Shown: one piece after another, positions 923 to 63,754 of the stretch
Numbering within the stretch: the stretch's first letter is position 1
Layout of the letters: the number at the start of each line of letters is the position of its first letter
DNA from: an uncultured Hormoscilla sp.
Lineage (GTDB): Bacteria > Cyanobacteriota > Cyanobacteriia > Cyanobacteriales > Desertifilaceae
NCBI GenBank assembly: GCA_963921275.4
Contig: OZ001293.3
Location: forward strand, 5,696,001-5,760,000
DNA length: 64,000 nucleotides
Reading direction: 5' to 3'
Notes under the pieces: model-generated
What the model saw: only the letters and a program-made list of their open reading frames with translations
Told to the model about the DNA's origin: nothing
The model's database searches: none
Program-made: the position numbers and the translations under genes

Positions 923-1699
923 ATGGGCAGCCCGACTCAATGGGTAAAGAGCTTTTTGAATCTGTTTCTCAAGTCCAATTGTCCTCTGTGCGGACGTCCA
1001 GCCGATCGGGAATTATGTCCATCTTGCGAGCGCTCGCTGCTGCGGTGCCAGTTTACCAATCCCAGTCAATTTTGGAAAGGACCGCTGCCAATATTTGTCT
1101 GGGGCTTATACGGCGGCCTGCTCAAGCAAGCGATCGCTGCCCTCAAATACGAAAATCAGCCCCAGTTAGCTCGTCCTCTCGGTACTTGGCTAGCCCAAGC
1201 TTGGATGAAATCGATATCTCCTGGGAGCGCTACATGCGCTGCGCGCACGCTGCGCGATCGCACTACCCAGGAGATATCGACGCCCCATTCTCAGGTTAAA
1301 CCAGCGGTTCGACTTCCCTCACCGCAAGTAGTTGTACCTATCCCCCTACACGCCGATAAGCTCAAGCAGCGCGGCTTCAACCAGGCAGAACTGTTGGCAG
1401 AAAGCTTTTGCCAATACACGGGTTTACCCTTGTGCCGCCAGGGTTTAGAACGGGTGCGGACAACGGAGGCCCTGTTTGGTTTGTCTCTTACTGAAAGACA
1501 ACAAGTTTTGGCTGACGCCTTGAGTGTGGGTGAAAGCTTAACTCAAAAGCGACCGCAACGGGTGCTGCTGCTAGACGATATCTACACTACTGGTACTACT
1601 GTAAGCGAAGCCACTAGTGTCTTGCGCCGTCAGGGAATTTTCGTCTATGGCGTAGTCGCGATCGCCACCACCAAGAAATCTCCCGGTAGTGGGTCATAA
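923..1699 (+). CDS. comF: ComF family protein
   Basis: CPLC..LCPSC zinc ribbon, PIPLH..K..RGFNQA, LLLDDIYTTGTT PRT motif; in-frame repeat insert SISPGSATCAARTLRDRTTQEIS. Confidence 0.9.
   Translation: MGSPTQWVKSFLNLFLKSNCPLCGRPADRELCPSCERSLLRCQFTNPSQFWKGPLPIFVWGLYGGLLKQAIAALKYENQPQLARPLGTWLAQAWMKSISPGSATCAARTLRDRTTQEISTPHSQVKPAVRLPSPQVVVPIPLHADKLKQRGFNQAELLAESFCQYTGLPLCRQGLERVRTTEALFGLSLTERQQVLADALSVGESLTQKRPQRVLLLDDIYTTGTTVSEATSVLRRQGIFVYGVVAIATTKKSPGSGS
1211..1280. repeat. Hairpin element A with nested 24-nt element (1234-1257)
   Basis: TCGATATCTCCTGGG...CCCAGGAGATATCGA; removing the 24-mer gives the same core length as the empty copies at 11937 and 57640. Confidence 0.9.
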
Positions 1700-2104
1700 G
1701 TAGTGATTTTAGCCTCTGGAGCCTAGAGAGGGCGGACTCAAGAGAGCATCCGATCGCGTAGGCGTAGCCGTGTGTGCGCAGCGCAATCGTTCATTTGGTC
1801 GAATTGGCACCTGCCGGGAAGATCGGGCTAGACCCAACAGCGATGTCTGAGAGATTTTTGCGATTTTATGCGCTACGCGCACGCTACGCGGACGCTCGCG
1901 TAGCATCCCGATTTTTCCGGAACGGCAGACATCGAAAGCTAAATTAGCTACCAATTATTATCTCCCCACTCCTCGGGGTTGAGGGTTGGGGGTTGATGAT
2001 ATGAGTGATTCCCGAATCGAAGTAAATTAGGGGGGGGCCGAGCTGCGGGAACCGCAAGATTTGACGGCCACAAAGAGTCCTCTGCAATGCTGCGGTGCTG
2101 AGCT

Positions 2105-4343
2105 CTAGGTCGGTAGGAGAGGAGTGCTATTCTGATCGCTCACGTAAATCTTTGAAATCCCCTGCAGGGTAGCCAGGGTTTCCCCTTCAAAGTTAATCAA
2201 GGTATCTAGGCCCTGATAGACGTGAGCCAAATCTACCGTTCCGGAAAAATCGCGTCCAGCCCGATCGCGTCCAGCCCCGTCCGTATAATCTTCAAAGTCT
2301 ATGATAGTACCCATCATGTCCGACTCCAGAACAAAAATATTGGCCTCTGATCCTTCGTAGAGGCGATCGCTTCCATGGTTTCCGTAAACGCGATCGCTTC
2401 CCTCCCCGCCGATCAGAGTGTCCTCCTCCTCCTTTTCAAAGAGTGATAAAGTTAGGGGTTGGGGGTTGAGAGTTAGGGATTGACGAGTATTGCTAAAGTT
2501 AAGGTCAGTAGGAGATTCGGCAACATTGTTCACATTAATAATCAAAGCCTCCGAGTAACTGGCCCCAGTAACGTCAATAGTCTGAACGCGGATGCTGTAA
2601 CTCGACCTCATCTCCAAAGCCGGAGAACTGTTAATTAGCAATTGGTCCCCTACTATAGTGAAAGCAGCGTTATCATCGTCACCAAAACCAGAGATTAACC
2701 GGTAGGTAAAGGTATTTCCCCCGTCCGGATCGCTAGTAGAGAAAGTCCCCACGATCGCACCCTTACGGGAATTAGAATTGATACTGCTGTTGCTAAGAAC
2801 TATGTCGGTGGGAGACTCGGCAACATTGTTCACATTAATAATCAAAGCCTCTGAGTAACTGGCCCCAGTAGAGTCAGTAGTCTGGACGAATATCCTGTAA
2901 ATCGACTGAGTCTCAAAATCCGGGAAACTGTTAATTCGCAGTTGGTTCCCTACTATAGTGAAAGCAGCATTATCATCGTCACCGTCGCCCGAGACTAACT
3001 GGTAAGTAAAAGTATCTCCATTATCGGGATCGCTAGTAGACAAAGTCCCCACGACTGCACCCTCAGGGGAATCTTCATTGATGCTGCTGCTGCTAAGGAC
3101 TAGGTCGGTAGGAGACTCGCCGACATCGTTGACGTTAATAATCAAGACCTCCGAGTAACTGACCCCAGTCGAGTCAGTAGTCTGGACGCGGAGGCTGTAA
3201 CTGGACTGAGTCTCAAAGTCCAAAGAACTGTTAGTTAGCAGTTGGTTCCCTACTATAGTACAGCCAGAGATCCTCCAAATTGGAAAGATTCCCTAACTGA
3301 CTCGGGATGGTGCCAGTCAGTTGGTTTTCGTTCAGCCGGAGACGATTCAAATTGGAAAGATTCCCTAACTCAGTCGGGATGCTGCCAGTCAGTTTGTTCG
3401 ACTGCAGGTAGAGATCCTCCAAATTGGAAAGATTCCCTAACTCACTCGGGATGGTGCCAGTTAGTCGGTTGTTGGACAGCTCGAGATCTTCTCTCAAATT
3501 GGAAAGATTCCCTAACTCACTCGGGATGCTGCCAGTCAGGTCGTTGTTGTCCAGGTCGAGATCTTCCAAATTGAAAAGATTCCCTAACTGACTCGGGATG
3601 CTGCCAGTCAGACCGTTCCTGTTCAGATAGAGTCCCGTCACCCTGACTCTATCTAGCGTCACCCCAAACCAATTAGCAACAACAGACTCATCGGGGAGAA
3701 TGGTACTGTTGAAATCCCAGTCCTCCCAGCCATTCGTGTTATCCCAAGATGTAGCCCTACCCGTGCCTTGGTATAGACGCCTTAAGGCCTCATAATCCTG
3801 CTGATTGAGGGGGAGCAATATGCCTCCATAGGCTATCTGAGCTTCTGCGGACAATGCTAAGGGAGTTTCCATCCCGGGAGTCCGCCACTCCAACTCCCAA
3901 TTCCCGCCCCGGGCTGCTGCCCCTGTCCGGGTAGTAGAGGCGGCAATATCAGCCGCGGTCAGGGCCTGTAGCTTAGCCATCAACTCCTCTCCTGCATCTC
4001 CGGCGGCGACGTTACAGCCGTAGAGTAGGAGTTGTTTTACCTTCCACTTCTGCAGGGTAGAGGCGTAATCCCCTAGGGTATCTAAACTCAGTTGGGAGTT
4101 CCCCAGATACAGACAGCCAGGGCTGCCGTGGGAGAGTAGGTGAAGAACCTCTGTTTCCCGATGCTGTAGGAGTTGTTCGCCGATCTGTTCGATGCCATCG
4201 GACTGAGGGTCTAAGAGGAAGGGTTTGGCCTGGGGCCGGATGCCGTCTATAAGCTGCTGGTAGTTTTCTAGGGAGGCATCCACTACTACCATGGTGTTGG
4301 CATTGGTATTGGTATTATGCTTCATTTTTGGTTCTGAATTCAT
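2105..4343 (-). pseudogene. DUF4347 + LRR + cadherin-repeat + RTX-like adhesin, internally deleted and frameshifted near 3257
   Basis: ORFs 3231-4382 (HLLSHGSPG, LLYGCNVA, GGNWELE, then GSIP-ELGNL LRRs) and 2105-3223 (DFETQSSY cadherin repeats); an LRR is fused mid-repeat to a cadherin unit. Confidence 0.85.
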
Positions 4344-4360
4344 TTTTCTGTCGAGGTGCC

Positions 4361-4465
4361 GGTTCGCATTGCTGAGCTTCAAGACGTTTCAAAACCCGTT
4401 CGTCAGCATCATAAGCTTTGTCTGCGAGTAACGCATCAGCCTTAATATTATCAAGTAACACATCA
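4361..4465 (-). mobile_element. IS5-family transposase internal fragment
   Basis: Near-identical to 28925-29028 of the IS5 copy. Confidence 0.8.
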
Positions 4466-62205: not shown

Positions 62206-62239
62206 GATTCTCCTGTACTACCTAACATCAACTCCCTTT

Positions 62240-62400
62240 CGGTGTCTCCTGGATAGTGCGACTATGATGTCCCCCCGATGTCGGGTTTCGCCGTAGGGTT
62301 TCGGCGATGTCTGAGGGGTTGCCTGCGTTGCATCCCGATTTTTCCGGAACGGTAGACATCGAAGTGCGTCCGGGGGACATCAAGCTTCCAGGAGACACCG
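62240..62400. repeat. Three-layer nested hairpin composite
   Basis: CGGTGTCTCCTGGA..TCCAGGAGACACCG / TGATGTCCCCC..GGGGGACATCA / CGATGTCT..AGACATCG. Confidence 0.88.
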
Positions 62401-62727
62401 CTAACGCCAGAGTTTATTCTCTAAGTCTCGCACCTGACGCTCCAAACGGTCTAGACGCCCCCGCAACTCATCCATTTCTGATTGGCGCGATACTCCTAGA
62501 TCCATTAATATGTTACGCAGTTGTCGCTGCATCTGAGCGTCTAAGTTTCCCTGTTCTGACTTGAGTTGTTCCATCAACTCGTCTACCATGTTCTTGGCCT
62601 GTTCGGGATTTATTGTCCCATTTTTCACCCATTCGTCACTCACCTGCTTGATTTTCTCTGCTACCCTCACTGTCGTTCCTACCCCTAGTAACAGGATCTG
62701 CTTGAGAAAGTCATTGCTGCTATCCAT
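62401..62727 (-). CDS. Phasin-family-like conserved protein
   Basis: LLLGVGTT..DEWVKNG..EMDELRGRLDRLE. Confidence 0.7.
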   Translation of the reverse strand: MDSSNDFLKQILLLGVGTTVRVAEKIKQVSDEWVKNGTINPEQAKNMVDELMEQLKSEQGNLDAQMQRQLRNILMDLGVSRQSEMDELRGRLDRLERQVRDLENKLWR

Positions 62728-63754
62728 AGTTTTGTCCCTTTTCCCGATCGCCGGTCTGACCACGGCTTATAAGTCAAGTCAATTTTAACCGATTGTCAAG
62801 GCTGTTGCCACCAGCGGGCGATCGCGCCCCAGTCCCCTTGTCCCCTTGCCCTTATCGTTGGCAGCCAGAGACTGCCAACGAGAGCTTGAGATTCTCGCGG
62901 AGAGCATATTCACCAGTCTGTGCCCCTCCGGTAGTGCGATTGCAATATCTCTTGGGTAGTGCGAGTAGCGATCCCAAGAGACATCGAGCGAGGTATCTCC
63001 TGGGTAGTGCTCCTAGGGGTCAGGAGATACCTCGCCCCTCGGGGCTGGTAACAGTTACCAAATTTCTTGAGGTATCTGAGCAAATATTAGTATAATGCCA
63101 TCGATAATGGGATGTAATTTATTTGCCGAGAGTGGGTATAATATAATGGCAAGCTCCATAAACGCCTATCGGAACGTGAAGTTGGGAAAGCATGTATGTA
63201 GCCTCTGCTACCAACTGAATAATTCTCAAGTCTTGCACTGACATTCTGAGTCGGCAATCTTTCAGTTGAGCGTGTCTTTAACTGGGGGCTAGAGGTCAAG
63301 GAATGAGCGATTTTTGAGCAATCTTTAAGGACTCAAACCAAGCGTAAGCGTTTCTAGTCAAGCAAAGTTACACCGTGGACTTGGGCATTTGCAGATTTTT
63401 GCCGTGGTTTGCCCATATATGCAGATGTTTTTAGAAGCGGCACAGTAGCCCTCTAACCCGGTCTTTTGGAAAAACAGGGTTTTGTAATTTAAGCATCTAT
63501 CCTCTCCCACTGGGAAGGAGATGATGCTATAGTTGATAGTAGACGATCGCAAGGGGCAGAGCTCAATACCTCTCGGTTAAGCAGGGAGCACCCGAGCAGG
63601 GAGCAGGGAGATTGCTTCGGGGGGGGTCTCCTCAATTTCCCATAAGTTGATCGCGGTTGTCCCCCTCTCGCAATGACTTCTAAAATACAAAACCTTGAAG
63701 TATTGGGGCAGAGCCTCATTACCGCTCGTTGGCAGCCAGAGACTGCCAACGAGA

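Follow-up and report, generated by a model that had tools for sequence, protein, structure and literature searches.

A roughly 45-base mobile hairpin of Hormoscilla that carries its own arms and probably moves as a folded single strand

A 64,000-nt stretch of DNA from an uncultured Hormoscilla (C1:5696001-5760000, where C1 is contig OZ001293.3; hereafter the window) carries short hairpins whose outermost bases differ from copy to copy while the two arms of each copy still pair, raising the question of where such arms come from and how the hairpins move. The first-pass annotation had read this pattern as a sign that insertion makes an inverted copy of the target, or that the arms are corrected against each other. 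The hairpins that it listed are all present, at 1211-1280, 8210-8277, 11937-11982, 62240-62400, 62989-63034 and 60400-60467 and as a pair in folP, and they stand far above chance, since exact inverted arms of at least 14 bp within 140 nt form 10 diagonals in the window (some of them other repeats) versus 0 in each of 30 shuffles. We describe them here as copies of a mobile hairpin of about 45 bases whose arms belong to the element, and which probably moves as a folded single strand pasted by a helper at a site offset from an AT motif.

The family consists of mobile hairpins of 41-65 nt and is restricted to the genus. Its commonest unit is 44 nt long and combines a 14-bp outer stem and a 5-bp inner stem with a bulged T and a 5-nt loop, the outer stem being made of a 5-nt outer arm (mostly CGATG) and 9 nt such as TCTCCTGGG; of 227 units, 73 have CGATG/CATCG arms. 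There are also sister forms (41, 53 and 65 nt), which have the outer stem in common and differ in the loop. The inner stem holds a T.G pair in 261 of 266 cases, with a compensated G-C to A-T change in 15, and G.T pairs outnumber A.C pairs in the outer stems (103 vs 73, p=0.03), a strand asymmetry. Contig C1 holds 552 family hairpins, 449 of them outermost and 103 nested, while the reversed genome gave 0. Sixty of the 227 units lie within frames of at least 200 amino acids; in 15 of these the loop strand is the sense strand and in 45 the antisense strand, a count shaped by stops in one frame and thus not used as evidence. No replication-strand bias of the hairpins was seen on C1, where the GC skew is about 0. 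In the five Hormoscilla genomes the loop pattern matched 216, 107, 73, 72 and 29 times, and 199 others from the order gave 0-2 matches each; in a genome collection, all 72 matches among those listed were titled Hormoscilla, and no family match was found in viral contigs. None of the hairpins in the window matched an Rfam structured RNA at gathering score, the only matches there being two group II introns.

To trace the arms we compared the source genome (G000; 7.0 Mb, 96.7% complete, from a sponge-dwelling cyanobacterium, and rich in HIP1 GCGATCGC, with 4754 occurrences) with four relatives of the same genus (G001-G004, the assemblies of G001 and G003 being fragmented). The screen for filled and empty sites covered 2.48 Mb from the relatives, in stretches picked around known copies and the window. 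Its 1529 indel candidates yielded 965 clean ones, 77 with a family hairpin and 61 sites, and removal of 2 repeats of one event left 59 filled/empty orthologous pairs. An extra replication set of 72 loci was weak, 45 having no joined orthologue, 17 being filled and 6 usable, with one site mis-bounded and one repeating an earlier event.

The empty sites contained neither arm. Across the 59 sites, a copy's own 5-nt arm matched the empty site no better than shuffled arms did (3.37 vs 3.34, permutation p=0.35), and the best match to the 14-nt arm reached at most 9/14 in 58 of them. The arms were likewise absent from the empty site in 6 of 6 cases of the extra set, and the same arms recurred at unrelated sites. 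Within the window, the sites of the 1211, 8210 and 60400 copies belong to the 59-site set and are empty of both arms; those of the 57640 copy and the inner folP copy were also seen empty. Near-identical paralogues within G000 agree, a nested insertion in the element's own loop swapping TC for a G..CA-ended unit with a net gain of 45 nt. Distant orthologues of the comF site also lack the insert, which makes the filled state the derived one. In both cases in which a target base intrudes into an arm, the opposite arm is unchanged. The arms are therefore the element's own rather than copies of the sequence in which it lands, so the genome-wide collection and empty-site comparison that the first-pass annotation had called for turned against its inverted-copy proposal. 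A palindromic target with ordinary duplication, considered for the 1211 copy, was ruled out by the empty orthologues. In public DNA runs, which may include the source sample, contigs matched both halves of the 1211 copy and spanned the 8210 copy with zero differences; the empty form of the window sites was not among the matches listed.

The copies in the window and their state in the relatives are as follows.

19..59, plus strand: 41-nt sister hairpin with a TTTTCG-type loop, the inner part of a larger nested stack that starts before the window.
1212..1279, minus strand: 44-nt family hairpin enclosing a 24-nt element at 1234-1257, 69 nt net together and in frame within a ComF-family gene (923-1699); empty in G001, G002 and G003, a simple 45-nt form in G004.
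1287..1288, minus strand: AT target motif (-9/-8) upstream of the 1212 copy, also in the empty orthologues.
8210..8277, minus strand: family hairpin with a nested 24-nt element (8232-8255), 69 nt net, in frame in a 995-amino-acid open reading frame (ORF) with weak TPR matches; empty in G003 and G004.
11938..11981, plus strand: simple 44-nt hairpin built of a 14-bp outer stem, a bulged T, an inner stem of 5 bp that includes the T.G pair, and a loop of 5 nt; its AT motif lies at 11929-11930, and the G001-G004 stretches compared held no orthologous site.
25500..25643, plus strand: family hairpin enclosing another copy (25525-25625) plus further inserts, with its AT motif lying at 25491-25492; site filled differently in G004.
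34682..34723, plus strand: 42-nt sister hairpin with another loop, from the genome-wide hairpin scan.
39968..40020, no strand assigned: 53-nt sister hairpin inside dnaN (39403-40659).
41798..41904, no strand assigned: 53-nt sister hairpin in folP (CAG..CTG), holding a nested second copy at 41817-41869 (TTGG..CCAA, 41816-41870); both belong to the 53-nt sister subfamily, and the inner one is missing in G002, 54 nt net (locus L133).
57640..57683, plus strand: simple 44-nt hairpin; empty in G004, 46 nt net.
60400..60467, plus strand: family hairpin of the internal-loop subfamily enclosing a 24-nt element, 69 nt net together and in frame within the part of dnaB (58693-61680) that holds the intein; empty in G004.
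62240..62400, plus strand: family hairpin with several nested inserts; G004, which carries both this and the 1211 copy, has the same outer arms and flanks here with another interior.
62943..62986, plus strand: simple 44-nt hairpin, common to G004.
62989..63034, plus strand: 46-nt member of the subfamily with GAGGT arms, its loop altered, from the window hairpin scan.

The junctions follow a rule of their own. The overlap between the two junctions was negative, meaning loss of target bases, at 29 of the 59 sites, 0 at 8, 1 at 18 and at least 2 at only 4, which bears out the earlier remark that no direct target-site duplication is visible. The net gain equalled the hairpin plus one nucleotide at 38 sites, across loop types of 41-65 nt (net 42-66). 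This value was found at 24 of 30 sites inside long ORFs and at 14 of 29 elsewhere, where it is still the mode, suggesting that plus one is the default and is sharpened by selection; net multiples of three accounted for 26 of 30 insertions inside long ORFs vs 14 of 29 outside (p=0.002). Three target bases align to both ends and are kept only in part. In the 38 sites, the left flank was 0.92-1.0 identical between filled and empty forms at -15 to -7 and 0.79-0.89 at -6 to -2, dropping to 20/38 at -1 and 0, while the right flank gave 16/38, 18/38 and 14/38 at 0, +1 and +2 and then 0.87-1.0 (34/38 at +3). Position +2 is A in 30 of the 38 filled sites, and the target already had A there in 9. The 3' junction is thus sharp, with an added A, and the 5' junction is graded and at times carries donor flank: the copy at C1:2820219 has a 5-nt foreign tract that is found upstream of three sibling copies, one of which shares the start of its rarer loop.

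Upstream of the insertion, on the loop strand, AT occupies positions -9/-8 in 143 of 382 oriented outermost copies versus 16 on the mirror side, over a background of 7%, and the relatives show the same (50 of 131 copies vs 5), in both main loop types. The motif pre-exists in 24 of the 59 empty sites, and the element's own loop offers an A at -9 of a common nesting site. A link between arm type and the bases at -11 to -7, as expected of arm-guided target choice, was not clear when judged by eye, and this candidate was dropped. With no duplication, replaced target bases and an offset upstream motif, the suggestion that the mechanism is unlike transposition of an insertion sequence (IS) or of a miniature transposable element with inverted repeats (MITE) holds.

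The covariation that first drew attention to the arms is real and extends beyond the outer bases to which it had been ascribed, covering the whole 14-bp stem. Among 64 distinct copies, two-sided changes occurred at 12 of 19 stem pairs and filled 159 cells versus 46.5 in shuffled and 22-33 in slid controls, a count inflated by kinship of the copies. A different picture emerged at sites filled in two genomes: of 588 pair positions in 42 comparisons, 535 were unchanged, 47 had changed on one side, 2 were compensatory and 4 were double but unpaired, indicating that settled copies decay. Some of the single changes stem from a 1-nt register shift, and one of the two compensatory cases has foreign flank on one side, leaving one clean two-sided transversion, at C1:2719763. 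Moreover, subfamilies with mismatches (G.A/A.G, C.C, T.C or G.T) have spread to 13-25 independent sites, and target bases retained at arm position 0 are unmirrored in 2 of 2 cases, which together exclude arm copying at every move. Nevertheless, 53 distinct perfect stems were counted among 87 perfect copies at independent flanks, and a spanning tree of the stems, a rough count inflated by recombination, required 94 two-sided changes (41 transversions) at 14 pairs vs 39 single changes at 3 free loop sites. Selection for pairing alone may struggle with that two-sided rate, so occasional arm-to-arm copying during a move is possible. Pairing would be kept among mobile lineages by selection, perhaps aided by such copying.

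We then searched G000 for mobilisers, the kinds that the first-pass annotation had named among them, and none could be tied to the hairpins. The tyrosine recombinase profile PF00589 had 0 matches in the 7 Mb, with control genomes positive in 14 of 14 cases; a Y2 profile matched nowhere and is hence uninformative. Two Y1/RAYT-like genes (C1:241783-242259 and 1348433-1348894) are each flanked by arrays of their own repeat, the repeat type of the second also occurring at 17387-17478 of the window, and no family hairpin lies within 3.5 kb of either. All five Hormoscilla genomes have Y1 genes, which are equally common in sister genera that lack the hairpins. The sole small GIY-YIG (Ssn-like) gene (C1:5222065-5222265) is broken by internal stops and has no family hairpin within 5 kb. 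Neither the four IS110-type matches nor the ten resolvase matches, five of which we take to be IS607-like copies, showed a cluster of family hairpins at the places checked, the IS110-type check covering three of the four places, plus one with two copies about 5 kb away. G000 has 93 reverse transcriptase hits and 344 group II intron domain-V motifs, and maturase hits number 75, 60, 40, 7 and 1 in the genus vs 0-3 in nine genomes of sister genera.

Taken together, these data favour, with more confidence than doubt, a mobile hairpin of about 45 bases that carries its own arms and travels as a folded single strand. In this model a helper enzyme would paste the strand at a fixed distance behind the AT motif, and insertion would replace up to about three target bases rather than duplicate them; the single-stranded folded intermediate is what we infer from these features. 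For the helper step alone, group II intron reverse transcriptases are the leading candidate, tentatively: a short transcript of the loop strand might be copied at a target nick by an intron reverse transcriptase, and the 5' side of the copy might be joined by short in-register pairing. The strand-specific fold with its wobble pair, the sharp 3' end with an added A and the graded 5' join fit reverse transcription of a short RNA. The parts of a preprint available to us report terminal-transferase, snap-back and microhomology-joining activities of such enzymes in vitro (bioRxiv 10.1101/2022.03.14.484287). The fullest version of this idea, a micro-element resembling a short interspersed element (SINE), in which a 45-nt hairpin RNA borrows the intron enzyme, uses AT as a ruler, swaps out target bases, brings donor flank along and in some moves undergoes homogenising of its arms, we consider unlikely; such homogenising, if true, would explain the dozens of distinct perfect stems.

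Alternatively, a HUH transposase (Y1/RAYT-like) acting in trans might move the same element in the form of single-stranded DNA, as proposed for REPINs, whose movement by RAYT in trans is put forward in the portion of the source seen (PMC3116915), and for IS200/IS605 miniatures. An imperfect hairpin with bulge and wobble, a strand-specific upstream motif, the lack of duplication and the presence of Y1 genes throughout the genus all suit this route, which we nevertheless hold to be somewhat unlikely, given the surroundings of the two G000 genes and the hairpin-free sister genera described above. Insertion of the IS608 type, moreover, occurs directly beside its motif with zero target bases lost, whereas the hairpins replace bases and sit 6-7 nt from their motif. 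What probability remains for the helper goes to another nuclease or to host repair. Spread by host recombination or gene conversion with no dedicated helper, or "empty" sites that are really deletions of unstable palindromes, would accord with the empty mobiliser search and with a graded 5' junction and donor-flank carry-over that resemble conversion tracts. We regard this as improbable, because the distant comF-site orthologues are empty, no flanking homology or direct repeat is available for slippage or recombination, and an enzyme with a geometry is what the constant 3' A and the fixed, strand-specific spacing from the motif suggest. Routine correction of the arms, whether through chromosomal template switching or with each move, appears distinctly unlikely. 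The abundance of distinct perfect stems, the clean transversion, the presence of both MutS and MutL and, in the part of the source available, the homogenising of inverted-repeat arms by template switching elsewhere (PMC8604942) speak for it, but the excess of single over compensatory changes at shared sites, the spread of mismatched subfamilies and the unmirrored target bases speak against; of the earlier correction proposal, the routine in-place and obligatory forms fail, and room is left, weakly at best, for an occasional event. Least probable by far is an insertion that writes an inverted target copy so that one arm equals the old target. At 15 of 38 sites the base just outside the 3' arm does complement the target base at -1 (p=0.03 against a permutation mean of 9.8), a signal for which copying and a leaning of donors towards targets like their own 5' edge are equally good explanations, but the next base out does so in only 6 of 38, and the arms are missing from the empty sites.

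Several observations weigh against the folded-strand model and its proposed helper. The empty sites come from other species and are not true parents, with a flank divergence of about 4% at shared sites. The AT motif is partial, being found in 37% of copies, 3 of 8 window sites and 2 of 6 extra sites, and the net gain was plus one in only 2 of the 6 extra-set sites. Only 2 of 9 foreign tracts of at least 5 nt match the upstream flank of a sibling donor. Long-range arm pairs numbered 34, and the 8 that were opened held an IS or intron in the loop, or neighbouring copies, and no autonomous copy. No result links any enzyme to the hairpins. Numbers of introns and hairpins are not rank-matched (60 and 72 in G002, 40 and 107 in G004, in assemblies that differ in quality), and their co-occurrence could stem from an overall expansion of mobile DNA in a symbiont. 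Finally, intron targets share the A at -9, yet hairpin targets lack two further features of theirs, the A at -15/-14 and the IBS1 signals.

Among known systems the SDR elements of Nostocaceae are the closest kind, set apart here by their descriptions rather than by sequence comparison. Elhai et al. are said to have described in 2008 SDR1-8 of 21-27 nt that nest in themselves, have copies in genes and keep their structure by compensatory changes. Both are very small, non-coding, mobile cyanobacterial repeats without a known mobiliser, and the 59 polymorphic sites, the nesting of 103 of 552 hairpins, the copies in genes and the covariation found here recall those traits. The family hairpins differ in their length of 41-65 nt and long stem, with only the siblings described below being 15-24 nt, and in a host outside Nostocaceae. 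In the sections seen, one source has SDR5 inserting within HIP1 (PMC4390886) and another states that no SDR-like repeat was found outside Nostocaceae (PMC5861425). The 15- and 24-nt siblings at CGA/CGAT resemble HIP1 insertion, but only single hairpin targets lie in or near HIP1 (L139, L144), the signal being the offset AT. What is added here is the junction rule and the upstream AT motif, the SDR-like kind being already known, and the original SDR text or supplements may already hold similar junctions.

REP/REPIN sequences and their RAYTs offer a further parallel in their hundreds of short non-coding hairpins, some in frame, with proposed single-stranded DNA movement in trans, according to the parts of two sources available (PMC3116915, PMC3733652). 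In the present family, by contrast, GTAG is internal, at the stem-loop junction, rather than at one palindrome end like the GTAG or CGTC tag of REPs, the unit is a single hairpin and not an inverted-REP doublet, and in G000 no Y1 gene is flanked by a family hairpin. Rickettsia palindromic elements likewise are in-frame palindromes tolerated in housekeeping genes with no known mobiliser, as far as the seen part of PMC3733652 tells; compared by description only, the present hairpins are much shorter and self-nesting, with a junction rule and an upstream motif. MITEs of the DDE type have terminal inverted repeats comparable to the 14-bp arms, though the arms vary between copies, and differ in that here there is no fixed-length duplication and, in the 8 of 34 pairs opened, no autonomous partner. 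IS200/IS605 elements insert directly 3' of a 4-5-nt motif on one strand with no target loss. Their miniatures resemble the hairpins in the one-strand upstream motif and lack of duplication, and differ in that the motif here is offset and target bases are lost at 29 of 59 sites. Integration of the Tn916 type, with coupling sequences, leaves foreign bases at the junctions, as seen here; it was rejected for the lack of PF00589 in G000 and a 3' arm that is never target-derived. Circular permutation of a 45-nt circle, also tried, does not yield the AA/CA tails. NTS/SRM hairpins with the Ssn nuclease share a strand-specific hairpin and cutting a few bases upstream, in the portion of PMC11893778 that was seen, a likeness offset by the broken G000 gene. 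No description of this family was found in the literature listings and abstract openings covered, and the Hormoscilla genome paper (PMC6520454), when searched for "transposase", "intron", "palindrom" and "mobile", gave no match.

Other repeats accompany the family. Micro-insertions of 15 and 24 nt (1234-1257, 8232-8255, about 1302-1325, and genome-wide) have CGA/CGAT targets, their net length being constant and their edge bases variable; one 24-nt pattern has 163 occurrences in G000 and two in a single one of 300 other genomes of a phylum sample, and the 24-nt element nested at 1234, at 8232 and in the 60400 copy resembles the loop core by eye. At C1:5863590, 1676705, 2185217 and 3926122, a site in repeated sequence holds hairpins of the same inner stem with differing outer arms and loops in both orientations, reflecting either a hotspot or the replacement of one copy by another. 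Larger elements have hit family-hairpin loops at C1:5277776-5280555 (a transposase-bearing insert with a TAGT duplication) and 1122631-1123619 (a group II intron). IS-like ends, presumably ISL3 as a candidate label, and miniature elements of 110-117 nt start with TCTCCTGGGT at C1:801024, 1093196, 1302485, 4506700 and about 15 more places, the same 10 letters as the commonest inner stem, by chance or common origin. Elsewhere in the window, the dnaA ORF (38260-39108) matches only profile positions 181-437; upstream of it lie domain-V hits at 36320-36396 (minus strand) and 38019-38096 (plus strand) and a 136-nt element with 18-bp inverted ends at 37097-37232, and dnaA may be split by an intron. 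The ORF at 44592-46748 (718 amino acids) has weak matches to leucine-rich-repeat models, far below cut-offs.

How SDR elements and in-gene palindromes move has been an open question since they were first described, and the dozens of filled/empty pairs from five genomes now supply rules: a strand, an AT at -9/-8, a replaced window of 3 nt, a 3' A and donor-flank carry-over. With these, the question is reduced to a reporter assay on a few candidate enzymes. Hormoscilla carries 15-codon inserts of this kind in dnaB, dnaN, folP and comF, and a helper able to insert 45-nt hairpins of variable cargo, often in frame and with no duplication, would matter for protein evolution.

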